64,000 nucleotides of DNA, taken from positions 80,189 to 144,188 of IMG/VR virus record IMGVR_UViG_3300033463_000023; one strand, written 5' to 3'. Both the position numbers and the translations under genes were made by a program. Shown here in pieces: positions 6,718 to 33,638 of the stretch (position 1 is the first letter of the stretch; each line of letters starts with the position of its first letter). Source of the DNA: a virus (taxonomy: Duplodnaviria > Caudoviricetes). The notes beneath the pieces are model-generated. The model made no database searches, was not told the DNA's origin, and saw only the letters and a list, made by a program, of their open reading frames with translations.

Positions 6718-9700
6718 CTACAGGTACTTCTCCCCGTGCCTTGCTGCTTCTTTCTGCAGCTTGGCGATGACGTTCGGCAGGCCGTCGGGCCCGTAGAGGA
6801 TGTTCTGCGCGACGATCGGCTCGCTGAGCCGGGCCAGCAGCGCCTCCTGCACGGCGGTGTTGCGGTCGAGCGACCCCTGGATGGCCGTGAGGTCCGTGCC
6901 GCCGCCGATGCCGCCCGTCGTGCCCCAGGCATCCCCGAAGTCGTCGAGGTTGCCGTCGGCGAAGGCGCGCACTCCCCCGCCCCGTCGGCGCATGGCGGAG
7001 AGCCGCCCGCCGTTGTAGAGCGTCTGGATGCTCTGCCAGATCTCCGGCTCGTTCAGGCGGATGTCGCGGGTGGTGTGGGCGTCGATGATCGCCTCCTGCC
7101 CGGCCTCGCCGACGAGGTGGAACTCCGGCCCGCTGGTGACGTGGGTCTTCGCTCCCTTGCCCATGTACCTTGCGCGGTAGGTCCTGCCGTCGGCGGCGTC
7201 GACGTTGTACTGCCTGCCAGGCGTGAGCGTAGAGGGGTCGGTGAACTCGTTGACGTTACCGCTGGCGTACGTCATCATGCCCGTTGACAGGCGGCCGGCC
7301 GAGACGGACGCGCCGGTGACCTGGGCGATCTGCGACTTCGACTTGGCGATCTTCGATACGGCAAAACCGAGCAGGCCTCCGAGCAGGGCCGTGATGGCGG
7401 CGAAGGCAGCGGGTCCTGCGATCGGGCCAAGCTGTGCAAACGTCTTCGACGCGACGGCGGGAGTGTCTGCTGCAACCTGTGCCGTGTTCTGGGCCATGGA
7501 AGTCGTCAGTGCCGATATGGCCGCCTGGCCCGCCGCCTGCACGGCGATCATCTCGAACTTCTGGGCTGTCGAGAGATTGTCGTTCGACATGGCCTGGTAG
7601 GCGATTCCGTAGAGGTTGGCGGCGGCGGTCATCTTGGCGAAGGCCGACTGCGCGCCGCCCGCGATCTTGTTGTCTGTCTGCTGCTCGCCCTGCTGCACCT
7701 TCTTCTGGTTGTTGAGGACCTGCGCCGTGGCGGCGTCCGACGCCTGCACCTGGGCGTTGTAGGCGTTCTGCATGCTCTCGATGCCGGCGGCCGTCATCTG
7801 CCACGGAGCCTTGTATGGCAGGCCTTCCGGTTGCTCCGCCACGGCGGGCTGTATCGGCGAAACGACTTGTCCGCTGCCGTCGAGCGCCATGCCGTTCTCG
7901 TCGCGCTTCAGCTTGCTGGCGTCGGAGAAGTCCGACTGGCCGCCAGCGATCCCGCCGAGCAGGTCGTACAGCGCCTGGGTGTTCAGCCCCAGCGCCGCCG
8001 TGTTGGCGTCTATCGCCTCGTTCTGCAGCGCGGCGTTCATCCAGTCGGTGATCTGCTCGTCCATCTTGGCGTTGATGTCGTCCATCACCTTCTTCCACGC
8101 GTCGGCCTGGGCGTTCTGCTGCTCTATCTCCCGCTGGCGCTCCAGGGCCTGGCGGTCGTTGAGGTACTCGTAGTGGGCGGCTGCGTCCTCCGTGCCCTCG
8201 TTCTCGATGACGATGTACGTCCCGGCGCCGGGGCCTCCCTTGCCGGTGAGCTCCATCTTCGCCAGCTCGTTGTAGTACTCCGCGTTGCCGGCGTTGCTGG
8301 CTTCCATCACGTCCTGCAGCGAGCCCGTCAGCAGGTCTGCCCATTCCCTCAGGCTCTGATAGAGGCGGTTCTGGGACTCCTCGGTGCGGGCGATGATCTC
8401 CTCGCGCTGCTTGGCCAGCTCGGTCAGCTCCTTAGCCTGCGAGATATTCAGTGATGTCGTCAGGTGCTGAGCGTCGAGCGATGCCTCCACAGATTTCGTC
8501 ACGGCTTCCTCTGCCTGCCGCGCCTTCAGTCGTGCCTCTTCGGCCTTGCCTGCGTCCTTGGCGGCCTCGGCTTCCTTCTTCAGGCGCTCTGCCTTCCGTT
8601 TCTCCAACTCTGCCTCGCGCTCCAGGAAAGCAATACGCTTCCTGCCCTCCTGCTCCATCAGGTTGTAGTAGTGTTCCTGCATCGTGATCTTCAGCTTCAT
8701 CTGCTGGATGGCGAGCTTGTCGGCCACGCGTTCCGATGCTGCACCGGCACCTATCAGGCTGTTGGCACGGCTCACCCTGCCCTCTTCCAGTCCCAGTGCG
8801 CTTATGGCCAGTTCGTAGCTGTCCTTCAGGCTGGCGCTCTGGCCGGGCATCACGTCCTGCCACATGATGTCAACCTGCTTCTTGATCTGCGACGCCTCCT
8901 TCTTGATGGCGTTCTGCACGTCGTCGTACACTTTGTGCAGCGCCTCCAGTATCGACTGCCGCTTCTGGTCGTCCACCATCAGCTCGTCGGCCCATTCTCC
9001 CAGGCCATTCTCGCGCATCCGCTTTGCCAGCTCATCGACGGTCAGCGCATAGGCGTTCTCCGCCTCTCCCAGCAGGAAGCGCATGCGCTTGGCCTCGGCC
9101 TTCACCAGCACACCTGCGTCGGTCACGCCCTTCTTCTCCATGTCGGCAAAGAGGATGTCCATGTCCGTCAGGTTCTTGCGCAGGTTGTCCACGATGCCGT
9201 CATAGGGCCGTTCCTTGGCCACGATGTCGGCTATCTTGTTCAGATGCTTCACGGTGATCTCCTGCATCTTCGTCATGTCCTGCTGCATGCGGTAGTTGTT
9301 GCGCCCTATCTGTCCGGCGTTGGCCTTGGCCCACTCGGTGGTGAGCTTCTCGCGCTGCAGCTCGTCCAGCTCGAAGTTCTTGTGCAGTGTCTCCCACCAC
9401 TCGTCGAACGCCTTGGTCTCCTCCTTCGATATCTCGCCGGTGAACGACCCGCGCAGCTTCGCCCGCCGCTCCAGGTGCTTCTGCTCCAGCAGCTCCGCCT
9501 GGCGGTTGTACAGCTCCTCGCTCATGTTCTCGTCGATGCGCGCCTTCTCCAGCGTCTCCTTGCGGCGCGAGTAGTAGCGGTCGAGCTCCGCCAGCGCATA
9601 GTCCGTCTCCGGCATCAGGTTCTTGCGCTTGCCCGTCTTGGCTTCCGCAGCCCAGTGCCCCTCGTTGGTGGAGAAGCGCTCGCTCTTCAGCTCCTGCTCG

Positions 9701-12700
9701 ATCTTCTTGCGCTCCGCGTTGTACCAGTCGATGACGTCATTCATGTTCGGCTGCACCTTGCCGTCGTTGATGGCCTTCATCAGGGCGATGTCCTCGGCCA
9801 GCACCTTCCTGATGTCGGTATCAGGGCGGATCGCGTTCTTGAAACGGTCCATCTGGTTGCGGCGGGCCACCAGCTCGTCAACGTTCCAGGAAGCGTAGTC
9901 GGTGCTGGCGGCCTCCGGCTCGGTGCCCCAGATGTTCGCGGACGATCCTGCGCTGCCGCCTTCGCCTATGCCGCCTGCCTCGCCCTTCTGCGCCTGCTTG
10001 GCGGCTTTGATGATCTGCCTGCGCTGTTCCTCCGTGAATGCCCTGAAAAGGGTCTCAACGACATTCTCGACAGTGGCTTCGTTCCCGTTGGCTACATACT
10101 TGTCGGCTTTGTCAAGCTCTCCATTGAACTTGTTCAGGTTGGCGGTGATGATGTTCACCTGCTGTGCCAGGTCGCCGACATTCTCCATCGCCCTCTCCGC
10201 ACCGCCGGCGATTTGGTTAAGGACACGGTTGTAGGCATCGTCATTCATCTTGTTGGCGCTCGCTATGCTGGCACTACGGGCCCCTTTTGTGAACGATTCC
10301 GAATCCTGGCGTTTCTCCTCTATCTCTGCTTCGCGCTTCAGGGTCCTCTCCGTCCACTGGTCGAACGACCTGAACGACTGGCTGATGAAGTCTTCGAGCG
10401 TGTTGCTGACTTCGCTGTAGATGGTAGTCCCATATATGGTGCTTCCGGTAGCCACGGAACGGGTTCCAAAGTTCAGCGGCACCTCCTTGCCGTTACGGTC
10501 TCTCACGTTTCTGGCGCCGGCGACCTCTTCCCTTACGATCTTTCCGAACACCTTCTCCAGCTCCTTCCGCAGTTCGGCATAGCTGCCTCTTGTCACCTCG
10601 CCGCCTGTAAGTCCCTCGATGGCAGGCAGCGTGTACGACGCCTTGCCGTTCTCGTCGACGCTGTAGCGGATGCTGCCACGCACAGTGTTCCAGCGGCTGC
10701 GTATCTGGCGCTGCATGTCGGCCGGCAGCGACTTCAGCGAGGCCGTGCTTCTTGCGCCGGCCTCGTCGATGCCCTCGTTGTGCTTTTCGTCGATGCCCTC
10801 TATCTCCTTGTTCAGCCGCTTCTGCTCCAGCTCCTCCTTCAGCGCGTCCACGATCTGCAGGTGTGCCAGCGCGACCTGCTCGGCGGCAGTCTTCTCGTTG
10901 AGCATGTAGCCCAGGTAGGTGCTGTACTTCGAGTTGATCTCGCTGATAAGCCCGCTGCGGGTCTTGTTGGCCTTGTTCATCTCGTCGGAGGCAGACTTCA
11001 GTTCCTTCTCCTTCTGCTTCAGCTCCTCTTCCTTCTTGCCCAGCCTGTCGTGGGCCTCTGTGCTCTTGTCGGTAGAGCTCCTTAGGACGTCAACCTCCTT
11101 GCGCAGTTCGTCTGTCTCCTTTTTCAGCTTACGGTGCTTCTCGGCCGCCTCGTTGGCCTTGGGTATGGCTTTCTCGAGCGAGGATGTCAGCCTGCCCACC
11201 TCCCGCTCTGCTGCGGCTTCCTCGTTGTCGAGCCTGGCCAGCGAGAGCGCCATGGCGTCGATATTGGTGGCGGCGTCCCAGATGGCCTTGCCCAGCAGAT
11301 ACACAGCTGAAGCAATGGCAAACATCAGGTTCGCCTTCGACGCTGCATCCATCGCTCTCCATGCGGCGCGCCATTTCGCGGCCACGCCCGTTATCTGCAC
11401 GCCGAGGGATTTCACGCCCGTAATGGCCAGGTTCAGAGGTTTGATGAGGTATGTCCAGATGGCTCCGCCGATGCCGAGTTTCCACGCGCCGAACGCGAAC
11501 ATGACGGAAAACGCGCCGTCCTTCAGCCTGACAAACAGGTCCAGCACAACGCGCATGCCGTCGATAACGCCGCCGAGCCAGCGCTGCATGCTGTCATTCA
11601 CAAACACCTCCTCCAGCTGGTTCTTGAAACGCTCCCATCTTGCGGCGGTGGTCTCGTTCATCTTGTCGTACTCCTGCTGGATGGCGATATTCCCCTCATA
11701 CGCCCTGGAGGCGGTGCCGAGGTGTTCCTTCAGCGTCTCCACGTTCTGAGACAGGCCGGCAAAGACGATGCCGGCCCTGGCACCCTGCTGGTTCAGCTGC
11801 TTCATCACGTCCTTCATGCCGCCCATGTTCAGCATCTCCTCGATGCCCTCCTCGTCGAGGCCCGCATCCTTGATATGCTGGAACACCATGAGGATGGCCT
11901 CCATGCCACGGCCGGTGGCAAAGAGGTCGCGCAGGTCGTTCGGGGCCACCTTGATGGCCTTGGCAACCTCGAACGCATTGTTCTTTATCGCTGGGATCAT
12001 TCGTGACAGGGCGGTAGCCGACATCTCGACTCTCATGCCCAACGCGTCGACCGTAGAACCCAGAGCGGCCACCTGGTCGATGGTGATGCCGCTCTGTGCT
12101 CCGACGGCTCCAACACGCTTCACAAAATCAGTAATAGCGGGGGCGGTGGCGGCGCTGGTGGCACGCAGACGGTCGATGGTCGAGCCGACCTTCTCCATTG
12201 CCACGGCCGTGGCAGAGGATCCGTCGATGATTCCCTCGCGCATCTGCTTGTCAATCTTGGCGATCTCGCCGGTGGCAAGCGCCACCTTCAGCATCTCGGT
12301 GGCACCTTCCTTACCCATTTCCGGCAGGGCCACCATCAGCTTGTTGGCGGCCTCCGTGAATCCCTCCACGTCCTCCTGCGTCTTCAATCCCAGCTGGCCT
12401 GCAGCCACGGACAGGTCGAGAAGGCCGGTCAGCGCGGTACGGGTATCCATCTTCCTCAGGTTCTCGCTCAGCCGCCCCACCTCGTCAGCCGTGAAGCCGG
12501 TGGTCTTGCGCACCTCGCCCATCTTGTCCGAGAGCTCCAGCAAGTCGGCGAAGGATGCCGTGACCTTCTGCAAGGCGGTGGCGGCGCTGACGTAAAGGGT
12601 GATGTATGTCTTCAGTCGGCCCATGGCTTTCTCAAACGAGCTGGCGGTTCCCTTGCTGGTGGCGCCGAGCCGCTTCATCTCAAAGTCGGCCTTCTTGACT

Positions 12701-15165
12701 TTTGCTGCCAGTTCGTCGAAGGCCTCCCTGTCCTTGCCTGTCTCTATGCGCATCGAGGCGAGTGCCGCCCTACCCTGCTCCACGGCCAGCTTCAACTCGT
12801 TGAACGACTTGCCCTTAGGCGTGTCGAGTATGGCCTTGATCTCGCCTGACAGGTGGCCTGTGCGCTGCAGCTCGAGATTGATGCTGTCGATTCCCTCCTG
12901 CATACGGCGCCATGCCAGACCGCCCTTCACGGCCTGCTTCTGCAGGTCTTCGAGTGTCTTCTTGGCGAGGTTCAGCTGTTCAACCGTCCCCTTGAAGTTG
13001 CCGCTGCGGGCACTGAGTGCCGTCTGCAGGGCCTGCTTCATGGTCATGGTCGGTGCCGTGGCTTTCTCTGCGGCAACGCCTGCCTGAACCAGGTATTCGT
13101 TAATCTTCTTGATGGTGTCGGCTTCGGTCTCCTGCGGCAGCGAGTCGCGGTATTTCTTCAGCGCATCTGCATTCCTCTTGATGTCGTTGGCACTGGCATT
13201 GCCTATACCACCCCCAAAGAATGTAAGTGCCTTCTGTCCTTCGGCCTGCACCATCTGGTCTTGCAGTTGCCTCACTTTCTGCAGATTGGCCTCGTACTGG
13301 TGCAGACTCTTGCCTGCGTTCTTCGGGTCGTCAATCATGCGCTGCCAGTACTGCTCCTGTGTCTTCAGTGCGGAAGATGAAAGCGACGAGCCGTATCTGT
13401 TCAGCTGATCGTCCATCAGCTTAATGGCCTTCTTGCGCTCATCTTCTGCCTTCTTCAACGATTCGGCCTCCTTCCTCGCGCTTCGTTCGGCCTCCAGTCC
13501 GTATTTCTTAATATGGTCTTCGGCGTCGGCGATGGCCACTGACAGATCTTTGTACTTCTGGTCGCTGGCCGAAAGCGTCTGCTGGTATTTCTTGGCGTCT
13601 TCGATGGCCTTGCGGATATCACGCTCACTCATGGTCATCAGGTTGCCGCCCGTCAACTTCTGTGCCCCGGTCTTTGCCTGCTCGTTGGCGAGTCGCTGCT
13701 GCTCGGCAATGACGGCCTCGAGGTTGGCCTTGGCATCGTTGTATGCCCGGCTGCCGCGCTCGGCACCGTCCATCTGTGCCTGCCAGAAACGCTTGGTCTC
13801 TTCCAGCGCGCCGTCAGACAGCTTGCCAAGGTCGCTCATGCGGCCGTTCATCATCTGCAGCTGGGCGGCGGCCTTCTGTGCGCTGCGCTCCGCCTCCAGC
13901 CCGAACTTCTGCATGTGCTCCTCGGCACGGATGATGCTGTCCTGAAGCTGCTGGAACGACTTGTCGGTAGGCTTCATGGCTGCCAGCAGTTCCTTGGCAG
14001 CGGCGACGGACTGTTTCAGCTCTGACTCCGACAGCGTGCGAAGGTTCTTGCGGTTCAGACGGTTGGCACTGTCCTGCAACTGTTTGGTGTTGAGACGCTC
14101 CTGCTCGTCGGCGATCTTCTTCAGGTTGGCGACAGCCTCCTTGTATGCTCGGCTTCCACGGGTGGCGCCGTCGCGCTGTTCCTCCCAGAACTTCTTGGTC
14201 TCAGTGAGCGCATCCTGCGACAGCCTATTGAGTTTGTCAATGCGGCCTTGCATCATCTTGTACTTGTCGTCGAGCAGCTTAGCGGCCTCGGCCTGACGCT
14301 GCGCGGCTCGTGCCGCTTCCAAACCATGCGTCTTCAGGTATGCCTCTGCCTCGGCTATCTTCTTGGTTAGATCCTGTGCCTCCTTGCTGCCAGAGCGGTA
14401 GGTGGCCAGCAGCTCCTTTCCGGCACTGATGGCCTTGCGGATATCATCTTCCGAGTAACGGCCGAGCGCTTTCGAGCCTAACAGTTTAGATGACCGTTCA
14501 AGCTCCTTTGTCTGGATGCTGTCAACGTAGCCCCTGATCTCCTTCAGCTGGGCGGCATACTGCTTGTACTCAGCGGTGCCTTTGGGGATCATGGCAAGGA
14601 TTTTCTCAAGGCCTTCCTGCTCCTTTTTGAGCACGGCCTCCGAGACCTTGCCGCCCCTGCTGATGGTCTCAATGACCTTCTCCGTGTCACGGTCGAGGCG
14701 GTTGAGCTGCTTCTGTGATTCGGTTATAACCTTGTTCAGGTCGCGCTGTCTCTGCAGATCCTCCTCGTTCAGCTTGCCGTTCTCCCCCTTCTCGCGGATG
14801 GGACGCAGGCGGCTCTGCGCGGCGTTGATGGCACCCTTCAGCTCGGCACGGCTGCTCTTTTCGATCTCACCCATGCGGATGTTCTTCACAACGGATTCGA
14901 GTGCGGTGGCTCCCTTCATCAGCTCGTGGATGGCAGACTCGAAATTACGGGCTTCCTTGGCGGCGGACTTCAGGCGGTCTGCCACGTTGAACTCCACACC
15001 GTTGCCGTCCTTCAGCTTCTTGATGCCGTGGTCGAGCGCGTCCTGCATTTCATCGACAGTCTTCCTTGCCTCCCTCGCGCTTGCTCTCAGAGAGTCCAAG
15101 GCCACGTTCGCGCCTTTCGCGTCGGCACGGAACTGGATGGTTGCCAAAGCTATCTTGTTGCTCAT
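6718..15165 (-). CDS. tape measure protein
   Basis: 2815 aa, helical and Ala/Glu/Lys-rich; core LSDKMGEVRKTTG...DTRTA...AAGQLG; C-terminal LVGEAGQEAII. Confidence 0.92.
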   Translation of the reverse strand: MSNKIALATIQFRADAKGANVALDSLRASAREARKTVDEMQDALDHGIKKLKDGNGVEFNVADRLKSAAKEARNFESAIHELMKGATALESVVKNIRMGEIEKSSRAELKGAINAAQSRLRPIREKGENGKLNEEDLQRQRDLNKVITESQKQLNRLDRDTEKVIETISRGGKVSEAVLKKEQEGLEKILAMIPKGTAEYKQYAAQLKEIRGYVDSIQTKELERSSKLLGSKALGRYSEDDIRKAISAGKELLATYRSGSKEAQDLTKKIAEAEAYLKTHGLEAARAAQRQAEAAKLLDDKYKMMQGRIDKLNRLSQDALTETKKFWEEQRDGATRGSRAYKEAVANLKKIADEQERLNTKQLQDSANRLNRKNLRTLSESELKQSVAAAKELLAAMKPTDKSFQQLQDSIIRAEEHMQKFGLEAERSAQKAAAQLQMMNGRMSDLGKLSDGALEETKRFWQAQMDGAERGSRAYNDAKANLEAVIAEQQRLANEQAKTGAQKLTGGNLMTMSERDIRKAIEDAKKYQQTLSASDQKYKDLSVAIADAEDHIKKYGLEAERSARKEAESLKKAEDERKKAIKLMDDQLNRYGSSLSSSALKTQEQYWQRMIDDPKNAGKSLHQYEANLQKVRQLQDQMVQAEGQKALTFFGGGIGNASANDIKRNADALKKYRDSLPQETEADTIKKINEYLVQAGVAAEKATAPTMTMKQALQTALSARSGNFKGTVEQLNLAKKTLEDLQKQAVKGGLAWRRMQEGIDSINLELQRTGHLSGEIKAILDTPKGKSFNELKLAVEQGRAALASMRIETGKDREAFDELAAKVKKADFEMKRLGATSKGTASSFEKAMGRLKTYITLYVSAATALQKVTASFADLLELSDKMGEVRKTTGFTADEVGRLSENLRKMDTRTALTGLLDLSVAAGQLGLKTQEDVEGFTEAANKLMVALPEMGKEGATEMLKVALATGEIAKIDKQMREGIIDGSSATAVAMEKVGSTIDRLRATSAATAPAITDFVKRVGAVGAQSGITIDQVAALGSTVDALGMRVEMSATALSRMIPAIKNNAFEVAKAIKVAPNDLRDLFATGRGMEAILMVFQHIKDAGLDEEGIEEMLNMGGMKDVMKQLNQQGARAGIVFAGLSQNVETLKEHLGTASRAYEGNIAIQQEYDKMNETTAARWERFKNQLEEVFVNDSMQRWLGGVIDGMRVVLDLFVRLKDGAFSVMFAFGAWKLGIGGAIWTYLIKPLNLAITGVKSLGVQITGVAAKWRAAWRAMDAASKANLMFAIASAVYLLGKAIWDAATNIDAMALSLARLDNEEAAAEREVGRLTSSLEKAIPKANEAAEKHRKLKKETDELRKEVDVLRSSTDKSTEAHDRLGKKEEELKQKEKELKSASDEMNKANKTRSGLISEINSKYSTYLGYMLNEKTAAEQVALAHLQIVDALKEELEQKRLNKEIEGIDEKHNEGIDEAGARSTASLKSLPADMQRQIRSRWNTVRGSIRYSVDENGKASYTLPAIEGLTGGEVTRGSYAELRKELEKVFGKIVREEVAGARNVRDRNGKEVPLNFGTRSVATGSTIYGTTIYSEVSNTLEDFISQSFRSFDQWTERTLKREAEIEEKRQDSESFTKGARSASIASANKMNDDAYNRVLNQIAGGAERAMENVGDLAQQVNIITANLNKFNGELDKADKYVANGNEATVENVVETLFRAFTEEQRRQIIKAAKQAQKGEAGGIGEGGSAGSSANIWGTEPEAASTDYASWNVDELVARRNQMDRFKNAIRPDTDIRKVLAEDIALMKAINDGKVQPNMNDVIDWYNAERKKIEQELKSERFSTNEGHWAAEAKTGKRKNLMPETDYALAELDRYYSRRKETLEKARIDENMSEELYNRQAELLEQKHLERRAKLRGSFTGEISKEETKAFDEWWETLHKNFELDELQREKLTTEWAKANAGQIGRNNYRMQQDMTKMQEITVKHLNKIADIVAKERPYDGIVDNLRKNLTDMDILFADMEKKGVTDAGVLVKAEAKRMRFLLGEAENAYALTVDELAKRMRENGLGEWADELMVDDQKRQSILEALHKVYDDVQNAIKKEASQIKKQVDIMWQDVMPGQSASLKDSYELAISALGLEEGRVSRANSLIGAGAASERVADKLAIQQMKLKITMQEHYYNLMEQEGRKRIAFLEREAELEKRKAERLKKEAEAAKDAGKAEEARLKARQAEEAVTKSVEASLDAQHLTTSLNISQAKELTELAKQREEIIARTEESQNRLYQSLREWADLLTGSLQDVMEASNAGNAEYYNELAKMELTGKGGPGAGTYIVIENEGTEDAAAHYEYLNDRQALERQREIEQQNAQADAWKKVMDDINAKMDEQITDWMNAALQNEAIDANTAALGLNTQALYDLLGGIAGGQSDFSDASKLKRDENGMALDGSGQVVSPIQPAVAEQPEGLPYKAPWQMTAAGIESMQNAYNAQVQASDAATAQVLNNQKKVQQGEQQTDNKIAGGAQSAFAKMTAAANLYGIAYQAMSNDNLSTAQKFEMIAVQAAGQAAISALTTSMAQNTAQVAADTPAVASKTFAQLGPIAGPAAFAAITALLGGLLGFAVSKIAKSKSQIAQVTGASVSAGRLSTGMMTYASGNVNEFTDPSTLTPGRQYNVDAADGRTYRARYMGKGAKTHVTSGPEFHLVGEAGQEAIIDAHTTRDIRLNEPEIWQSIQTLYNGGRLSAMRRRGGGVRAFADGNLDDFGDAWGTTGGIGGGTDLTAIQGSLDRNTAVQEALLARLSEPIVAQNILYGPDGLPNVIAKLQKEAARHGEKYL

Positions 15166-25523: not shown

Positions 25524-26096
25524 ATGAGAGGAAAGATCTGGAACTTCATCAGGCCATGTGACCCGGAGAAGGTGATACGGTTCGAGAACACGACGGGCGA
25601 GACGTTCGGCGCCATGTACAAGGCAAAGGCATGGCTCAACGCCCACGGCTACGTCTACGGCTCTACGGACCTGAGCCCGTACCTGCCGGCGATGAAGGGC
25701 AGCCGATACACGCTGCCGCAGAAGCTCCACAACTTCGAGCTCGACGACTACCTGCGGGTGACGGCCGTGCTCTACTCGCACGACTACCGCGACGGCTGGG
25801 TGGAGGTGTGGCTCGTGGAGCCGATGTACGTCCTCGACCTCGTGGTGACGTACCGCTGGTACGACATGATCCTGAGCGGCGAGAAGCGCGAGGAGTACCG
25901 CGATATCCAGAAGTGGCGCCGTCGCATCGTCGGCAAGCCGTACACCCACGTCCGTTTCCGCCGCGGCTACACCTCGACATGCCAGATCCTGAGCGTCGAC
26001 GAGATAACGACCGGAATCGGCCGCGAGGACTGGGGAGCACCGCAGGACAGGAAGGTACTCATCATCAAGCTCGGCGAAAGGTATGGAAAAAGGTAA
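25524..26096 (+). CDS. ASCH-domain protein with extra N-terminal domain
   Basis: WYDMILSGEKREEYR is the ASCH GxKxxExR motif. Confidence 0.75.
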   Translation: MRGKIWNFIRPCDPEKVIRFENTTGETFGAMYKAKAWLNAHGYVYGSTDLSPYLPAMKGSRYTLPQKLHNFELDDYLRVTAVLYSHDYRDGWVEVWLVEPMYVLDLVVTYRWYDMILSGEKREEYRDIQKWRRRIVGKPYTHVRFRRGYTSTCQILSVDEITTGIGREDWGAPQDRKVLIIKLGERYGKR

Positions 26097-26109
26097 CTTA
26101 ATAAAATAA

Positions 26110-26271
26110 ATGATTATGATTTACGCAAGGATTATCGGCTCGATAGTGAGCGTCATGGTGCTGTTCTACTACGTTTTCGTAGTGCTGCAGTGCTGGGGGC
26201 TGATACGCTTCTCGCACGAGAAGATCACGTTCCCGAAGGTGTTGATACCATTCTATTACTTTTTCAAATAA
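26110..26271 (+). CDS. small membrane protein upstream of SPFH gene
   Basis: 53-aa hydrophobic ORF (MIMIYARIIGSIVSVMVLFYYVFVVLQ...LIPFYYFFK). Confidence 0.65.
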   Translation: MIMIYARIIGSIVSVMVLFYYVFVVLQCWGLIRFSHEKITFPKVLIPFYYFFK

Positions 26272-26285
26272 CAATTTAAAAAATT

Positions 26286-27506
26286 ATGATTATGCAAGAA
26301 TTAAAAGTACCTAAGAGTGCCATTATCGGCATCTTCTCGTTAGTGATCATCGTCGCCGTGCTGTTCTTCTTCTCGGGAATGTTCGAGGACTGCGACAAGT
26401 CGAAGATTTACGTCAACCAGTACCCGTTCACTGGAGAGTATGCAGTCTGGACGGACGGCGGACTGCAGAAGCAGCTCTGGGGCAACACCTATGAGTACTC
26501 GAAGACCACGCAGGTGGAGTTCACCGGCGTGGTGAAGAACGAGGACGGCTACGTGGCAGACGGTGAGAACCCTGGCGCCGCCGTGACGTTCAACGACAAG
26601 GGGCGCGGGTTCATCATCGGCTCGCTGCGCGTGGTGCTGCCCATCGACTTCGAGCATATGTCGAAGATTCAGCAGGACTTCGGAAGCGAGCAGGCGCTCA
26701 TCTCGACGCTCGTCCGCCCGACTCTTTACAAGGTAGTGACCTCCTGCGGTCCGCTGATGTCGTCATTGGAGTCCGTGTCCGAGACCCGTACCGACCTTAT
26801 CCAGTACATCACCGACCAGCTGAACAACGGCGTGTACAAGACGAAGATCAAGAAGGTGGAGGTGGTCAACGAGCTGACCGGCGATAGCGACGTGGTGGCC
26901 AAGGCAGAGCTGATCACCGACGCCAATGCACCCGGCGGCTTCAAGCGCCAGGAGGTGTCCCCGTTCTCGCAGTACGGCATCACCTGTAACCTCGTAAGCA
27001 TCACCGACATCAAGTACGACAAGGCCACACAGGACCAGATCGACGCTCAGAAGGGTGCGAACCTCGCCGTCATCACCTCGAAGACCAAATCACTCGAGGC
27101 CATCCAGAAGACCATCCTCGTGACCGAGCAGGGCAAGCAGGCCGCCGAGACCGCCAAGTGGGAGCAGGAGAAGGAGAAGGCACGCGCCGTGACCAAGGCG
27201 CAGCAGGAGTATGAGGTGGCGAAGCTCGAGGCCGAGAAGGCCGAGCAGGTGGCCCGCAAGGTGAAGGCCGAGGGCGAGGCAAAGGCCGCTGCAAACCGTG
27301 CGCTTGTTGCCGCTGGTCTTACGCCGTTGGAGAAGGCTACCATCGAGAAGGAGACCGCCATCGGCGTGGCACAGGCCCTGGCCAACTCCAACGTGCAGTG
27401 GGTGCCGTCCATCATGATCGGCGGATCCGGCTCCAGCAACAGCAACGCCATGGACGCCGTCGGCCTGAACATGATGATGGACATCGTGAAGAAAATGAAC
27501 AAGTAG
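26286..27506 (+). CDS. SPFH/band-7 domain membrane protein
   Basis: N-terminal TM helix, band-7-like core, long Ala/Glu/Lys coiled coil. Confidence 0.75.
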   Translation: MIMQELKVPKSAIIGIFSLVIIVAVLFFFSGMFEDCDKSKIYVNQYPFTGEYAVWTDGGLQKQLWGNTYEYSKTTQVEFTGVVKNEDGYVADGENPGAAVTFNDKGRGFIIGSLRVVLPIDFEHMSKIQQDFGSEQALISTLVRPTLYKVVTSCGPLMSSLESVSETRTDLIQYITDQLNNGVYKTKIKKVEVVNELTGDSDVVAKAELITDANAPGGFKRQEVSPFSQYGITCNLVSITDIKYDKATQDQIDAQKGANLAVITSKTKSLEAIQKTILVTEQGKQAAETAKWEQEKEKARAVTKAQQEYEVAKLEAEKAEQVARKVKAEGEAKAAANRALVAAGLTPLEKATIEKETAIGVAQALANSNVQWVPSIMIGGSGSSNSNAMDAVGLNMMMDIVKKMNK

Positions 27507-27527
27507 CTTGGTGTAAAATGGGTGAAT

Positions 27528-29660
27528 ATGAATAACGTAGATGTTTACAGACTGTTCCAGGCGCAGTTCAACCGCCTGCAGGAGACAGGGAAGCTGTTCC
27601 GCTCCACGGTGACGGGACGGCAGGTGTGGGAGGCGTACATGCGGGGCTTCGACAACGACCCGATATGGCGCAGCCCGGAATCGAGCGAGCACAACTGCAA
27701 CACGTGCCGAAACTTCTTTGAGCGCTACGGCAACGTCGTGGCGATTGACGGCGACCTGAACGTGATGACGATGTTCGACGGCGAGACGACGGACGAGTAC
27801 CGCGAGTCGTTCCGCCTGATGTCGGAGCTGCTGAAGAGTGCGCCCGTCGGCGGCGTGTTCGTCGAGACGTTCAGCTATCTCAACAGCGTGCCTTACGAGA
27901 AGGCAAACCGCAACGCCGAGGACTTCGCGCTGGGCGTGGCACGTAACCAGAAGATCTACACCGAGGCCGAAGCCCGTCAGTTCGGCGTGGTCGAGGCGGG
28001 CCGCGTCTATACCTTTGATCACTTCATGGTGCGGCTCAACAAGAAGTTCGTGTCGTTCACCAATGACTCCCGCGAGGCGCTGGAAGCCCGCTACCGTGAG
28101 GACAAGGTGCAGCTGGAGAAGGCCTACAATACCATCGGCGAGGACACGCTGCAGCTGGTGATAGACCTGATCAGGCAGGGCTCGCTGCTCAACGGCGACG
28201 CCTACCTGAAGAAGGTGGAGGACTTCCGGGACATGATTCACAGCCTACATGCCTACGCCGACATGAACGACCAGCAGCGTGACAACCTATTCTGGAAGGA
28301 GAGCTACAAGTACCAGTACGCCCGCTTCCGCACCGAGCTCATCGGCACGCTCTGCACGGAGCTGGCCGAGGGCAAGGAGTTGGCGAAGGCTTGCACCGAC
28401 TGGAACAAGCGCGTGGATCCTGCCAACTACATGAAGGCGAAGGCCCCCATCACGCAGCAGATGATTGACGCGGCCAGGGCGTTCGTCACGGAGAACGGCT
28501 ACGAGCAGAGTTTCAACCGCCGCTGTGCCACGATGGAGGATATCAAGGTTTGCGACATCCTTCATGCCAACGCTGGCGACGGAACGATAAAACCCGTGAG
28601 CATCTTCGACGGACTGAAGCCCACGGCCACACGCCACAAGAGCAGCGAGTTTGATGGTGTTCCGGTGGTAGGCATCGACGAGTTCATGCGCGACATACTG
28701 CCGACGTGCAAGGCTGTGGAGGTGTATCTACAGAACCGCATGGAGAAGAACTTCGTGACGCTGACGGCTCCCGCAGTGGAGGACTCCAAACCCATCTTCA
28801 AGTGGCCTAACAACTTCGGCTGGACGTACAACGGCAACCTTGCCGGAAAGTCAGAGATACGCGAGGCGGTGAAGCAGGCAGGCGGCTTCGTTGACGCTTA
28901 CTTCCGTTTCTCAATCCTTTGGAACGAGAACGGGCAGGACATCTGCGACCTCGACGCTCATGCTTTTGAGCCAAACGGCACGGAGATATACTACTCGACC
29001 TACAAAGGACGCAAGACCCCCATTTGCGGCGGTATGCTCGACATCGACATGATACGACCTGAAGGCCGTGGCGTGGAGAACATCTTCTGGACTGACCCCG
29101 AAAGGCTCCAGGACGGCGACTACAAGTTTGGCATCGTGAACTACGACGACGGTCCCAACACCGTAACCAAGGCTGAAATCGCTATCGGTGACGAGGTGTT
29201 CCAGTACGAAGTACCTCACCGCATCCCTCACCGTCAGCCCGCATGGATTGCCACCGTCACCATCAAGGACGGACGCATGACCGCCATCAAGCACAGCGAC
29301 TACCTGAAGGACGGCAGCGGCATAGTGCGCGAAATCTACGGACTGCGTACCTGTGAGTTCCATCGCGTCAGCCTTGTGTGCCTCTCGCCTAACTACTGGC
29401 AGTCTGAGGTAGGCCACAAGCACTACTTCTTCATGCTCGACGGAGCAAAGGCACCGAAAGCCATCCGAGGATTCCACAACGAGTTCCTGACCGCCGACCT
29501 CTTAGACCACCGAAAGGTGATGGAAGTGCTCGGACAGACGCAGCAGGTAGAGAGCACCGACGGCCAGCTGTCGGGCTTAGGCTTCAATGCCACCGTGCGC
29601 GACGAGATGGTTGTCCGCGTCACGGGGAAGGACAACAGGGTTATCAGAATAAAATTCTAA
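27528..29660 (+). CDS. large hypothetical protein with CxxC and YfaP/DUF2135-like C-terminal region
   Basis: HNCNTC; DLDAHAFEPNGTEIYY...GGMLDIDM...VENIFW. Confidence 0.75.
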   Translation: MNNVDVYRLFQAQFNRLQETGKLFRSTVTGRQVWEAYMRGFDNDPIWRSPESSEHNCNTCRNFFERYGNVVAIDGDLNVMTMFDGETTDEYRESFRLMSELLKSAPVGGVFVETFSYLNSVPYEKANRNAEDFALGVARNQKIYTEAEARQFGVVEAGRVYTFDHFMVRLNKKFVSFTNDSREALEARYREDKVQLEKAYNTIGEDTLQLVIDLIRQGSLLNGDAYLKKVEDFRDMIHSLHAYADMNDQQRDNLFWKESYKYQYARFRTELIGTLCTELAEGKELAKACTDWNKRVDPANYMKAKAPITQQMIDAARAFVTENGYEQSFNRRCATMEDIKVCDILHANAGDGTIKPVSIFDGLKPTATRHKSSEFDGVPVVGIDEFMRDILPTCKAVEVYLQNRMEKNFVTLTAPAVEDSKPIFKWPNNFGWTYNGNLAGKSEIREAVKQAGGFVDAYFRFSILWNENGQDICDLDAHAFEPNGTEIYYSTYKGRKTPICGGMLDIDMIRPEGRGVENIFWTDPERLQDGDYKFGIVNYDDGPNTVTKAEIAIGDEVFQYEVPHRIPHRQPAWIATVTIKDGRMTAIKHSDYLKDGSGIVREIYGLRTCEFHRVSLVCLSPNYWQSEVGHKHYFFMLDGAKAPKAIRGFHNEFLTADLLDHRKVMEVLGQTQQVESTDGQLSGLGFNATVRDEMVVRVTGKDNRVIRIKF

Positions 29661-29679
29661 TCATTTAATCATTACAACT

Positions 29680-30066
29680 ATGTACAAGAAAGCAAGCCAA
29701 ATGAAACTGCGCATCGCCACCAGCCGTGGCATGCTGAGTGTAGAACATCTGTGGGATCTGCCGAAGGACGAGATCGGACAGATAGCCACCGACGTACACC
29801 GTACCATCAAGGAGGCCGAGGCCGCCGACGAACTGGGATTCCTCCGCCTGCCGGAGCGTAAGGAGCAGACAGCGGAAGAACTTACCTTCAACATCCTGAA
29901 GGACATCTATCTGACCAAGCAGGAAGAGGAGGATAAGGCTCACCGCCGCGCCAAGGCTCGCGAGAACAACCGCCGCATACTGGAACACATCGCCCGCAAG
30001 CAGGACGAGGAACTGGCCGGCAAGAGCATCGACGAGCTGCAGGCCATGCTCGAAGCAGAGGACTAA
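29680..30066 (+). CDS. hypothetical helical protein
   Basis: 128 aa, KLRIATSRGMLSVEHLWDLP. Confidence 0.75.
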   Translation: MYKKASQMKLRIATSRGMLSVEHLWDLPKDEIGQIATDVHRTIKEAEAADELGFLRLPERKEQTAEELTFNILKDIYLTKQEEEDKAHRRAKARENNRRILEHIARKQDEELAGKSIDELQAMLEAED

Positions 30067-30269
30067 GCGATATGAATGCTCGGCATGCAGGTTCTGGATG
30101 AAGTCGCAGACGCACGGTAACCATTGTGTCTGCTTGGGCAGGAAGCCGTGCGACCGCGACCGGCGCGACAAGGTGGCGGAACACCGCAAGAAGCACAACA
30201 GGCGCCGCCAGAAATGGGAGTAAAGACAAATTGAACGGATTAATATTTTCAATTCAAAACGAGAGAACT

Positions 30270-30893
30270 ATGTTTGAGAACATGCAGCAGACCTTCAATG
30301 GTCTATTTGGTAAGATTGCACCGGGTATGTGCCGTCTTACGATGAACGGCAACATTGCCGTTAAGTGCAGTAACGGTTACAAGTGCTACAACGTGAAGAA
30401 GGGCACTTTGACCAACGTGACTAACTTCTGCTTCAACGTGGGCGACGAGATGTTCTTCGTCATCCCGACGAACAAGGTGGAGGTTGGCGACATCATTCTC
30501 GTGCAGGGCAAGCCCAAGTGCGTGACGGCTGCCGACAAGAAGGTGATTACAGTGATCGACTACGAGAACTCTGAGGTGCGTCAGGTAGTGCCAGAGCGTC
30601 ATGTGTTCATGGGCAGCACGTATTTCTATGGTAAGGTCATTTCGATGTTCGGCAACTCGTTTAAGCAGGGCAAGGGTCTTGGCAACGTGATGAAGATGAT
30701 GATGTTCTCGCAGATGATGGGCGGCGGCAACGCTGGCGGTGGCACAATGGGCAACCTCGGTCAGATGATGGCGATGTCGATGTTCATGGGCGGTGGCAGC
30801 AATCCTTTCGAGGGTATGTTTGACTTCTCACTCGATGCACCTGCCGATGAGGACGACGATGAAACTGAAAGTGAAACAAAAAATGAAGATTAA
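30270..30893 (+). CDS. hypothetical protein with Met/Gly-rich tail
   Basis: ATG 30270 (MFENMQQ); beta-rich core; MMMFSQMMGGG...MMAMSMFMGGG tail. Confidence 0.75.
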   Translation: MFENMQQTFNGLFGKIAPGMCRLTMNGNIAVKCSNGYKCYNVKKGTLTNVTNFCFNVGDEMFFVIPTNKVEVGDIILVQGKPKCVTAADKKVITVIDYENSEVRQVVPERHVFMGSTYFYGKVISMFGNSFKQGKGLGNVMKMMMFSQMMGGGNAGGGTMGNLGQMMAMSMFMGGGSNPFEGMFDFSLDAPADEDDDETESETKNED

Positions 30894-30895
30894 TT

Positions 30896-30991
30896 ATGGG
30901 AGCAATTAACAAAACCGATTTTCGCGAGTATGGTAAGACTGAGGAGCAGACTCAGCATGTAGAGAACACTGAAAAGAAGCAGGAGGAATAG
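30896..30991 (+). CDS. 31-aa peptide
   Basis: MGAINKTDFREYGKTEEQTQHVENTEKKQEE; 2-nt gaps to both neighbours. Confidence 0.5.
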   Translation: MGAINKTDFREYGKTEEQTQHVENTEKKQEE

Positions 30992-30993
30992 TC

Positions 30994-31872
30994 ATGGGTA
31001 GCGGAACAGTATCACACAGCAGTCTGAAGAGCTATGCTTCTTCTTTGGGCCGCTCTTACGACAGCAGTACAGGACGTGTGAAGGGTCAGACCTTCGAGGC
31101 ACGTAATATTGATCCGACGCTCAACCCTCGCGGTTTCAAAGTCCGTGAGTGTTGCAACAGCGACGAGCACCCTAACACGGTGCCCGTCATCCTGGCACTC
31201 GACGTGACCGGATCTATGGGCGAAGCCTGCGCTGAGACCGCTGCAGCCCTCGGCAAGATTGTCACCAGCCTTTACGACAAGTTTGCCGACATCGAGTTCT
31301 GCATCATGGGCATTGGCGACCTCGACTACGACCACGCCCCAATCCAGATGAGCCAGTTCGAGAGTGACGTGCGCATCGCCGTGTCGCTCGACAAGGTGTT
31401 CATGGAGCATGGCGGTGGCGGCAACGGCTTTGAGAGTTATACCGCCGCATGGTATATGGGCTTGCATCGCACGAAGCTCGACTGCTACGACAAGCAGGGT
31501 CGCAAGGGTATCATCATCACAATGGGCGACGAGCCCCTGAATCCCTATCTGCCAGCCCGTGAACTGAACCCCTGCATCGACGCTACGGAAGAGCGCGACA
31601 TCGAGACGCCGCTGCTCTACAACCAGGCATCGCAGAAGTTCGACATCTTCCACATAGCCGTTGACAGTCCCCGCTGCTGCTACCGTCGCTATCAGCACGA
31701 CGTTGACAATTCTTTCGGTCAGCAGCTTGGCTCACGCTACAAGGTTTCGACCATCGACAGTCTGGCGCAGACCATCGAGGACTGCATCGCAGAGAGTATT
31801 CAAGGCGTGGCCGCTGCCCCTGCTCAGGAGGCACAGCCCGCACAGCAGAATAGTAACGGCATCAGTTGGTAA
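30994..31872 (+). CDS. vWA (von Willebrand A) domain protein
   Basis: VILALDVTGSMG MIDAS-like motif, GGGGNGFESY, IITMGDE. Confidence 0.85.
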   Translation: MGSGTVSHSSLKSYASSLGRSYDSSTGRVKGQTFEARNIDPTLNPRGFKVRECCNSDEHPNTVPVILALDVTGSMGEACAETAAALGKIVTSLYDKFADIEFCIMGIGDLDYDHAPIQMSQFESDVRIAVSLDKVFMEHGGGGNGFESYTAAWYMGLHRTKLDCYDKQGRKGIIITMGDEPLNPYLPARELNPCIDATEERDIETPLLYNQASQKFDIFHIAVDSPRCCYRRYQHDVDNSFGQQLGSRYKVSTIDSLAQTIEDCIAESIQGVAAAPAQEAQPAQQNSNGISW

Positions 31873-31876
31873 GCGT

Positions 31877-32947
31877 ATGAAGGCAAGTATCGTAATCGGT
31901 GCAAACTACGGCGACGAGGGCAAGGGAACCGTCGTTGCACGGCTCGCCAAGGAGAGCACCAACGTACTGAACATCCTCACGAATGGAGGCTCACAGCGTG
32001 GGCACTCCATTCTCACCAAGGACGGCTCGATGACGTTCCAGCACTTCGGCAGCGGCACCTACCACGGAGCCGACTCGTACTACGGTCCTGAATATGTGCT
32101 GAACCCCATGCAGTTCGTCAAAGAGTACACGGAACTGATTCGCAAGCCGGAGCATATTTATCGCGACCGCCGCTGCCGTTGGTCAACGCCCTACGACGTG
32201 ATGGCCAACCTCATTGACGAGGAACAGCGCCGTCGCAAGGCCAGCTGCGGCATGGGTATCTGGTTCACCATCCGACGCTGCAATCAGACCCCCATCATGC
32301 TGTTCGAAGACTTCATGCACCTTACGCCATCCATCCAGGAAGCCTATCTCGATGGTGTGATGCGATACTACGAGCGGCAGATGGACATCTCGAAAAAGTG
32401 GCGTGACATCTGGTTTTCCGACGGTGTGCGATCTCACTTCTATAAAGACTGTGAAACCATGCAATCGCTGACCACTGTGGCTGACCTAAAGAATATCACC
32501 GGCTACGACCACCTCATATTCGAGAACGGTCAGGGCCTGCTACTCAGCGACACAGGCCGCGACACCGCCGACACCACCCCGTCGGACACCGGCATCCAGT
32601 ACGGCCTTCGTATGGCCCGCGAGTGCGGCATTACCGACATCACCGCCCACTACGTCACCCGTCCCTACCTCACCCGTCACGGCGACGGAGCGATGGAGTC
32701 AGAAGTGATGCACCGTCACACCATCAGCCGCGACGTGCAACCCGACCGTACCAATGAGTACAACGAGCATCAAGGCCAGTTCCGTTACGGCGGTCTCGAC
32801 ATCAACCGACTGTGGCAGCGCATCCATGCCGACGCAAAAGATGTGCCCTACGTCGTAGAACTTACACACTGCGACGAAATGAACCGCGAACCCGACTTCC
32901 GTTGCACATTCGAGAAGGTCATCTGCACCGACAAGGCAATGGTATAA
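31877..32947 (+). CDS. divergent adenylosuccinate synthetase-like (PurA-fold) GTP-dependent ligase
   Basis: GANYGDEGKG, GGSQRGH, FENGQGLLL and YLTRHG motifs; ATG 31877. Confidence 0.85.
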   Translation: MKASIVIGANYGDEGKGTVVARLAKESTNVLNILTNGGSQRGHSILTKDGSMTFQHFGSGTYHGADSYYGPEYVLNPMQFVKEYTELIRKPEHIYRDRRCRWSTPYDVMANLIDEEQRRRKASCGMGIWFTIRRCNQTPIMLFEDFMHLTPSIQEAYLDGVMRYYERQMDISKKWRDIWFSDGVRSHFYKDCETMQSLTTVADLKNITGYDHLIFENGQGLLLSDTGRDTADTTPSDTGIQYGLRMARECGITDITAHYVTRPYLTRHGDGAMESEVMHRHTISRDVQPDRTNEYNEHQGQFRYGGLDINRLWQRIHADAKDVPYVVELTHCDEMNREPDFRCTFEKVICTDKAMV

Positions 32948-32964
32948 TATAAAGGATTAGCGAT

Positions 32965-33315
32965 ATGGACAATACGAAATTTACGCCCGTCTGTATGGCG
33001 GAAGAGTTCTGGGCCTGCTCGCAGTTCTCGGTGGCGAGGCATACCGGACACATCAGACTCAACGGTCACGAGTACGTGATCGTGAACAAGGAGGGCAAGG
33101 ATATCTTCCAGTGCAGCATCGAGGCGGAGAAGGCTGGACGAGACAAGGCCATCGAGCCCGGCGAGCCCGCAGACCTCTGCCGCCGGGACTTCGTGATGTA
33201 CTACCGCAGGCTGGGCCGCGACGCGTTCCTCCAGGTGCTGAAGGACAACCCAGCCGCCACCGACAGGGAGCTGATGAAGATCTACAAGGAGAGAATCAAG
33301 GAGGAAAAGATATGA
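32965..33315 (+). CDS. hypothetical protein
   Basis: 116-aa ORF. Confidence 0.7.
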   Translation: MDNTKFTPVCMAEEFWACSQFSVARHTGHIRLNGHEYVIVNKEGKDIFQCSIEAEKAGRDKAIEPGEPADLCRRDFVMYYRRLGRDAFLQVLKDNPAATDRELMKIYKERIKEEKI

Positions 33316-33638
33316 ACGAGCAGTTTGACATAGTGAACCTCCTGAACAACAAGGAGGCGCTGATAAGGTACATCCTCGGCATGATCACGTCGGGCGAGAA
33401 GTTCGCCCAGAACCTGCCGCAGATGCGCGAGCGGGGATGGAGCGAGCAGGGCATGCTTGACAAGGTGATCGAGATAACCGCCATACAGTCGCAGCAGATC
33501 AAGCACCTGGCGCTGGTGGCCCTGATCGCCGTGCAGTCGAGCGACTTCGACGGCAGCGTGGGCGAGATGATGGTCAAGATGGGCCGCGGCGAGGAGGCGC
33601 TGAAGGCGATGTTCGACGCGAAGCTGAAAGGGAAATAG
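33312..33638 (+). CDS. hypothetical protein
   Basis: ATG 33312, ATGA-coupled. Confidence 0.7.
   Translation: MNEQFDIVNLLNNKEALIRYILGMITSGEKFAQNLPQMRERGWSEQGMLDKVIEITAIQSQQIKHLALVALIAVQSSDFDGSVGEMMVKMGRGEEALKAMFDAKLKGK

Follow-up and report, generated by a model that had tools for sequence, protein, structure and literature searches.

We analysed a 64,000-nucleotide (nt) stretch of phage DNA, hereafter the window, that forms the final part of a viral record of 144,188 bp (IMGVR_UViG_3300033463_000023). Between positions 26110 and 32947 it carries eight genes that an initial reading of the letters, here called the original prediction, had proposed as one candidate system. Our analysis showed that this region consists of three unrelated gene units with independent distributions, and that the last of them is a widespread three-gene system of large phages and bacteria. 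This triad comprises a Met/Gly-rich (MG) protein of 207 amino acids (aa; 30270..30893), a vWA-fold protein of 292 aa (30994..31872) and a 356-aa ligase paralogue of the PurA superfamily (31877..32947), all encoded on the + strand. Judged from its sequence, the third protein is a distinct PurA paralogue, neither the adenylosuccinate synthetase PurA nor the phage enzyme PurZ, whose activation site appears intact while its amine site has been replaced. We propose, with a probability of roughly 0.4, that MG, vWA and PurA-like ligase form a self-contained system predicted to produce a new N6-substituted purine nucleotide.

To describe the distribution of the triad, 80 viral and 80 cellular loci were gathered with a vWA-like profile and then scanned with profiles, and the pair statistics were computed over 167 loci. 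A PurA-like gene followed the vWA-like gene on the same strand in 165 of the 167, usually no more than 130 nt away; of the two exceptions, one locus (L021) ends 2 nt past the vWA gene and the other (L155) is a 2.7-kb fragment. The pair loci span Mycobacterium, Rhizobium, Vibrio and gut/rumen phages together with bacterial chromosomes. Searches at the protein level against 50,697 annotated phage records placed vWA-like and PurA-like proteins in the same records (about 200 Mycobacterium cluster C phages, 10 Rhizobium phages, 6 Vibrio phages and one gut phage), and the two genes were adjacent in all four lineages. Even among distant vWA-like representatives (31-32% identity), three out of four had a PurA-like neighbour. 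Upstream, the MG gene directly preceded the vWA-like gene in 142 loci. That the vWA and PurA-like genes belong together, as the original prediction had held, is thus borne out by the pair in 165/167 loci. Its statement that no pathway of this composition had been characterised also stands: a literature search gave no description of the triad, only genome announcements in which the gene is listed as a 'PurA-like adenylosuccinate synthetase'.

Some loci depart from the compact arrangement. When the spacer between the vWA-like and PurA-like genes reaches 750-1100 nt, some of the inserts resemble HNH-AP2 homing endonucleases; those of three viral contigs (L057:6882-7637, L073:7111-7662 and L066:6849-7922) have HNH and AP2 or treble-clef zinc-finger domains and are probably homing endonucleases. 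The fourth distant vWA-like relative (P0325, from a sister branch with 32% identity), located on a metagenome contig (L174:1160-6068), is without a PurA-like gene. A 428-aa Met/Gly-rich protein is encoded upstream of it, and a 147-aa protein, an NfeD protein and a 495-aa Band_7/SPFH protein downstream; from this gene order, the MG and vWA pair can therefore also partner an SPFH scaffold.

The original prediction went further and joined all eight genes into a single membrane-anchored complex. The eight open reading frames (ORFs) were all found, co-oriented on the + strand and closely packed, and the last four genes are separated by spacers of 2 nt (30893->30896), 2 nt (30991->30994) and 4 nt (31872->31877). 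This layout speaks for one integrated membrane system made of the SPFH, 710-aa, 128-aa, MG, peptide, vWA and PurA-like proteins, as do the distant vWA-like relative that adjoins NfeD and Band_7 genes and two related viral loci in which the DUF8224 gene (the 710-aa protein) and the gene of its 128-aa partner lie about 2.3 kb upstream of the triad. Those two, however, are the only loci out of about 165 bearing the vWA/PurA-like pair that have DUF8224 and the 128-aa gene in their flanks, and a window-type SPFH gene was found within 6 kb of none of them. The numbers of phage records per family also diverge, with 31 for SPFH, 510 for DUF8224, 324 for the 128-aa protein, 219 for vWA-like and 221 for PurA-like (about 220 for the triad pair). 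SPFH and DUF8224 homologues were present together in one record only (LR756500), some 195 kb apart, and the SPFH gene itself is of the crAss001 type (70% identity). Because the distributions differ and the flanks of the pair loci are devoid of a window-type SPFH, the eight genes are best seen as having come to lie side by side by chance in this phage. The eight-gene membrane system is already largely refuted by these distributions, and we consider it highly improbable; since the SPFH, 710-aa and 128-aa genes are not linked to the triad, a membrane-anchored complex has no basis for it. As to co-occurrence elsewhere, the eight genes are not found together, whereas the three-gene version is, in 165/167 loci.

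The original prediction had also allowed for two modules divided near 30070-30270. A division at that place is upheld, with the triad lying downstream of a 203-nt gap (30067-30269) that immediately precedes the MG gene. A promoter and terminator scan of positions 25900-33400 gave nothing above chance and so speaks neither for nor against a split at this gap. Three gene starts were corrected, to 27528, 30270 and 31877. For the PurA-like gene, the ATG at 31877 (MKASIVIGANYGDEGKG..., 356 aa), four bases past the stop of the preceding gene, replaces the TTG at 31661 as start; for the 710-aa gene the start is the ATG at 27528, and for the MG gene the ATG at 30270, as in three relatives.

The PurA-like protein of the window matched Pfam PF00709 (Adenylsucc_synt) with E = 1e-21, in agreement with the domain originally assigned to it. 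A profile of the triad-enzyme family retrieved bacterial PurA structures at E = 2.5e-33, and the family keeps the GDEGKG, GH, ENGQG and TRHG motifs. The equivalents of PurA Asp13, Lys16, His41, Gln224, Thr239 and Arg305 are conserved, and in the family alignment no member deviates at the P-loop Asp, the His or the Gln (the Asp and the His being those covered by a motif table of 16 members). Other parts of the active site have changed. In 15/16 of the members tabulated, phage and bacterial, the aspartate loop TTGRxRR (T300-T301-G-R303) is replaced by xQGx(F/L/I/M)(R/K), with MT835469 reading QD instead of QG; likewise, in 15/16, GTT has become GSC (T128-T129 to S-C), TRVG has become TRHG and Asn38 is mostly Gln. 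The TKLD motif of guanine specificity is not conserved, and about 75 C-terminal residues of PurA are missing from the phage enzymes.

This combination of kept and altered motifs bears on whether the gene could be an ordinary auxiliary purine gene, making either plain adenylosuccinate, as PurA does, or, as PurZ does, a precursor for 2-aminoadenine DNA. The Pfam match and the PHROG label '2-aminooxy adenylosuccinate synthetase' would fit such a role. The protein nevertheless scored far below the curated cut-offs, with 55.1 bits against 402 and 44 against 395.6 for PurA (TIGR00184 / NF002223) and 21 bits against 300 for PurZ (NF038379). An ordinary PurA is further at odds with the replaced aspartate loop and with the gene content of the hosts, five of five bacterial genomes examined having a canonical purA (503-592 bits) besides the triad gene (95-150 bits). 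For PurZ, the solved chains in the PDB matched the triad-enzyme profile at only E = 5e-4 to 1e-3, over P-loop residues 1-53 alone, and phiVC8 PurZ reads GSTGKG where all triad enzymes read GD(E/A)GKG. DatZ of phiVC8 found no match in the 144-kb genome, a blank obtained without a positive control and thus weak evidence. On motif, score and context we rejected the reading of the phage as one with a Z genome, and a conventional PurA or PurZ activity is very improbable overall. The view of the original prediction that the enzyme is no simple adenylosuccinate synthetase is therefore sustained by the low score, the replaced loop and the separate purA of the hosts.

Phylogenetic analysis pointed the same way. 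In a quick maximum-likelihood search with support from the SH-like approximate likelihood-ratio test (SH-aLRT), the triad enzymes formed one clan (99*), apart from canonical PurA (99*) and from PurZ. When PurA was taken as the outgroup, the cellular enzymes linked to a J-domain kinase-like partner (see below) were the deepest and the phage enzymes linked to MG were nested within them; this order of events is provisional, given the short search and the long outgroup branch.

The vWA-like family comprises about 1300 clusters at 50% identity, from which 62 diverse relatives were aligned. Neither Pfam nor a PDB sequence profile gave a vWA match for the window protein, and among the 62 relatives Pfam returned a single match (VWA_4, E = 0.0067). 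The fold is evident in the predicted structure. The AlphaFold model had a predicted local distance difference test (pLDDT) score of 93.6 and a predicted template modelling score of 0.90, and Foldseek aligned it to the vWA domains of integrin beta-I, complement C2a, TFIIH p44 and CMG2 with probability 1.00 and E ~ 1e-7. In the alignment, D70, S74, T176 and D179 are invariant and T72 nearly so, giving a DxTxS variant of the metal-ion-dependent adhesion site (MIDAS) motif, and the loop EGGGGGN..ESY is also invariant. D70-x-T72-x-S74, T176 and D179 together form a predicted MIDAS-like metal site. Although invisible to sequence libraries, the vWA assignment made at the outset is thus confirmed by the predicted structure and the MIDAS residues.

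The third partner is more variable. Residues 13-125 of MG form a beta-rich domain modelled with confidence (AlphaFold pLDDT ~90), beyond which confidence is low. This domain includes a small SH3/KOW/Tudor-like barrel with weak fold matches (Z <= 4.7), which indicate no more than a common fold. In the C-terminal part, a Met/Gly-rich low-complexity stretch is followed by an aromatic motif, FEGMFDF in the window protein, and by a poly-acidic tail; both the motif and the tail are conserved in the alignment. As the alignment of the domain contains no invariant lysine and the fold matches do not exceed Z = 4.7, we dropped the idea that MG is a lysine acceptor like EF-P/eIF5A. The narrow MG profile did not match the divergent Met/Gly-rich partners of Vibrio and Rhizobium phages, which were found by way of the 428-aa protein of L174; in these phages, more divergent Met/Gly-rich ORFs occupy the MG position. 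In 17 loci the upstream gene encodes, instead of MG, a protein of 300-376 aa with a J-domain and a kinase-like domain. Among them are mycobacteriophage I3 and chromosomal loci from Teichococcus, Competibacteraceae and Clostridia. The HPD motif of the J-domain is invariant, while the Asp residues of HRD and DFG are lost in most of the seven members aligned. Within the triad of the window, a 31-aa acidic peptide (30896..30991, +) is inserted between MG and vWA. This ORF, with the pattern MGxINxTDFxxYxK and an acidic tail, is kept in L012, L013 and L015 only, the three closest relatives sampled, and is a lineage-specific insert; most loci have a gap of less than 30 nt at this site.

Viral and cellular triads differed in their surroundings. 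A regulator of the NrtR type, with Nudix and winged-helix domains, was encoded within 6 kb in 52/80 cellular loci and in 0/80 viral loci. Cellular triads are compact operons with variable flanks, mostly of ordinary chromosomal genes, and one of them adjoins SIR2-STAND and TerB/BrxD-like/DEAD-helicase genes. In the cultured rumen isolate Lachnospiraceae NE2001, for instance, MG, vWA, PurA-like, an NrtR-like regulator and a large methyltransferase follow one another in order. The first ten or so 'cellular' loci, those nearest to the window, come from metagenome-assembled genomes (MAGs) of Bacteroidales, Prevotella and Paludibacteraceae and have no regulator; these are probably contigs of phages that were assigned to the bins of their hosts. 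These nearest MAG loci, together with the crAss001-like SPFH gene, point to a Bacteroidales host for the phage of the window. A search of PADLOC-DB 2.0, its TerY-P model among the rest, gave no match for six window proteins or four cellular homologues.

Several neighbours of the triad deserve mention in their own right. A protein of 655-703 aa with a class I methyltransferase domain adjoins the triad in 6/80 cellular loci (downstream in L192:13255-15222 and L177:12247-14358; also L128, L131, L140 and L145) and could act as an additional tailoring enzyme. In L163:7207-9477 the triad is flanked by a 757-aa protein in which a radical-SAM/HemN-like domain is fused to a Nudix/NrtR winged-helix regulator. 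In a Rhizobium phage (L003:540-2215), NAD-salvage genes encoding a phosphoribosyltransferase-like protein and an NMN adenylyltransferase/Nudix protein are found 3-5 kb upstream of the pair, and in a Vibrio phage (L002:3233-3883) a NADAR-domain gene lies just upstream of it. The NAD-related neighbours in these phages fit the link with NrtR in bacteria.

How might these proteins work together? In the mechanism that we favour, the ligase would phosphorylate the 6-oxo group of a purine nucleotide with a nucleoside triphosphate (NTP), as PurA does, and an amine other than aspartate would then displace the phosphate to yield an N6-substituted adenine-type nucleotide. The conserved phosphotransfer residues alongside the replaced aspartate loop suggest that activation has been retained and that another amine is used. 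The vWA protein would be an obligatory subunit that assembles or gates the enzyme, possibly by gripping the MG acidic tail with its metal site. In cells, the Nudix regulator would turn the operon on upon binding a nucleotide ligand. In phages the triad would be expressed during infection free of such control, thereby altering a host nucleotide pool or signal. Several considerations weigh against this proposal. With T300, T301 and R303 gone, aspartate is a less likely substrate, though this is no proof, and that the acidic tail touches the MIDAS site is a conjecture. A J-domain partner and a vWA adaptor would fit a protein-directed role equally well, the association with NrtR might stem from co-regulation with NAD metabolism instead of sensing of the product, and the enzyme tree comes from a quick search, is supported by SH-aLRT alone and has a long outgroup branch.

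The main competing explanation is that the enzyme acts, with its vWA adaptor, as an NTPase on a protein, either joining a nucleotide to a protein amine or driving remodelling with NTP, and that the J-domain partner or the Gly/Met/Phe-rich MG would recruit the host Hsp70, an arrangement comparable to MoxR-vWA pairs. MIDAS-bearing vWA proteins are typical adaptors of P-loop NTPases, and both the alternative partner, with its invariant HPD J-domain and a kinase-like domain mostly lacking the catalytic Asp, and the Gly/Met/Phe-rich and acidic tail of MG would suit such a function. Against it, the ligase retains the residues that activate the purine 6-oxo group (equivalents of D13, H41 and Q224), which a mere NTPase would not need, the MG domain has no invariant lysine, and the Nudix-type regulator indicates a small nucleotide ligand; we regard this explanation as doubtful. 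A further possibility is that the triad is a conflict system. The cellular form would be an anti-phage or stress module making a toxic or signalling nucleotide on a trigger, and the phage copies would serve for counter-defence or the exclusion of rival phages. This is a statement about biological role and not about chemistry, so that it overlaps both the nucleotide-product and the protein-directed explanations. It is favoured by the patchy accessory distribution with variable flanks, by the locus beside SIR2-STAND and TerB/BrxD-like/DEAD-helicase genes, by the acquisition of the triad by large phages whose hosts belong to at least four groups and by a layout of vWA and kinase-like proteins reminiscent of TerY-P defence. 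On the other hand, no component matches PADLOC, and the cellular flanks are mostly ordinary metabolic genes, with an island-like context in one of the six examined; a conflict role therefore appears unlikely. A broader formulation, which is possible and which we hold tentatively, combines several of these elements into an enzyme system of a novel type: the MIDAS vWA protein would present the substrate, the ligase would join purine C6 to an unusual amine, control would be exerted by the Nudix regulator with a J-pseudokinase link to Hsp70, and phages would have captured the triad repeatedly for use in conflict. If so, two kinds of amine are conceivable: with a non-aspartate amino acid the product would be a new nucleotide acting as signal or antimetabolite, and with a protein amine it would be a conjugate of protein and nucleotide linked through N6.

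The two upstream units are unrelated to the triad. The first consists of a 53-aa hydrophobic (membrane) peptide (26110..26271, +) and an SPFH/band-7-like protein of 406 aa (26286..27506, +). The latter is 70% identical, over 98% of its length, to crAss001-group proteins annotated as SPFH, and it matched phrog_11908 at 7e-39. The SPFH call made originally holds through this identity, although Pfam Band_7 (PF01145) gave 19.6 bits, under its threshold of 23.6. Apart from this and the PurA-like domain, Pfam matched none of the genes in the cluster. The peptide matched gp92 (phmmer E = 1.1e-6), which in crAss001 is encoded immediately before the SPFH gene gp91. The SPFH gene and its leader (26110-27506) thus resemble crAss001 gp91/gp92 even though the phages are otherwise unrelated, a similarity that suggests recent gene exchange among Bacteroidales phages.

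The second unit is formed by a DUF8224-family protein of 710 aa (27528..29660, +) and a 128-aa helical partner of phrog_2018 (29680..30066, +). The larger protein had been described as CxxC/YfaP-like; a single CxxC is indeed present at residues 57-60, but the YfaP-like label has no counterpart in Pfam, NCBIfam or the PDB, where no match was obtained, and the nearest Atlas clusters are DUF8224 (PF26675). PDB sequence searches with the SPFH protein, too, gave no match. The phage groups with DUF8224 and those with the 128-aa protein coincide (Kuttervirus, Klebsiella, Bacillus, Caulobacter, Cellulophaga and Clostridioides), and wherever both positions are known (Kuttervirus, Clostridioides and Bacillus phages and loci L067 and L075) the 128-aa gene lies directly downstream of DUF8224; in Cellulophaga phi17:2 a gene of similar size follows the DUF8224 gene. 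DUF8224 (~700 aa) and a helical protein of ~120 aa therefore constitute a conserved pair in Ackermannviridae and in Bastille-like Bacillus, phiCbK-like and Cellulophaga phages, which is often placed amid nucleotide or NAD-metabolism genes (window 27528-30066; L010, L011, L067, L075).

At the nucleotide level, a search of the region against annotated phages gave no match. Two further observations concern structural genes. The window contains a 2815-aa ORF on the - strand (6718-15165), possibly a tape-measure or another giant structural protein. In a related phage (L008:4405-5961; also a 77-kb contig), a portal gene of the T4 type is called in two pieces (119 + 375 aa) with a release-factor (PCRF/RF-1) gene nearby, and stop codons may have been reassigned in that lineage.

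PurA has long been held to have a single job, and PurZ is a re-tooled copy of it that rewrites DNA chemistry. By the alignments and the tree, the triad enzymes represent a third lineage of the PurA family, marked by an altered substrate loop, a constant protein partner and a predicted nucleotide-sensing regulator of their own. In gene numbers this lineage far exceeds PurZ, the clusters of its vWA partner amounting to thousands of sequences. Hundreds of phage genomes at present list the gene as 'adenylosuccinate synthase' or mislabel it as the PurZ enzyme. Identification of the product could uncover a new nucleotide metabolite or modification, and the triad is present in cultured systems, namely cluster C mycobacteriophages (M. 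smegmatis), Lachnospiraceae NE2001, Eubacterium ruminantium FB3002 and Teichococcus deserti.

Among known systems, units 1 and 2 have direct homologues. The first corresponds to crAss001 gp92/gp91 and the second to the DUF8224 and phrog_2018 pair of Kuttervirus, Bastille-like and phiCbK-like phages (phrog_1735 at 2e-190); both belong to uncharacterised phage families, as ordinary members without any notable difference. For the triad, the closest comparison is PurA itself (E. coli 1ADE, Yersinia 3HID), whose fold family it shares together with GDEGKG and the equivalents of Asp13, His41, Gln224, Thr239 and Arg305; in contrast to PurA, the triad enzyme is coupled to a vWA gene, has its aspartate loop replaced and falls under the equivalog cut-off. 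PurZ (phiVC8; PDB 6FM1, 6FKO) is likewise a PurA relative carried by phages, reduced in length and changed in its substrate use. It has Ser at the position of the catalytic Asp, which the triad enzyme keeps, its gene in phiVC8 adjoins DatZ and is near the PolA polymerase, and the triad enzyme stands on a separate branch of the tree. In layout only, the triad resembles the pairs of MoxR AAA+ and vWA proteins (CbbQ/CbbO, NorQ/NorD and ChlI/ChlD), in which a P-loop NTPase gene lies beside that of a MIDAS vWA protein; here, however, the NTPase is a PurA-fold ligase with an apparently intact active site and not an AAA+ ring, and there is no MoxR gene. Finally, the TerY-P triad consists of the vWA protein TerY, a Ser/Thr kinase and a PP2C phosphatase, and the cellular form of our triad with the J-domain kinase-like protein similarly places vWA beside a kinase-like partner. 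It differs from TerY-P in having no phosphatase and no PADLOC match, in a kinase-like domain that is largely stripped of its catalytic residues and accompanied by a J-domain, and in the presence of the PurA-like ligase.

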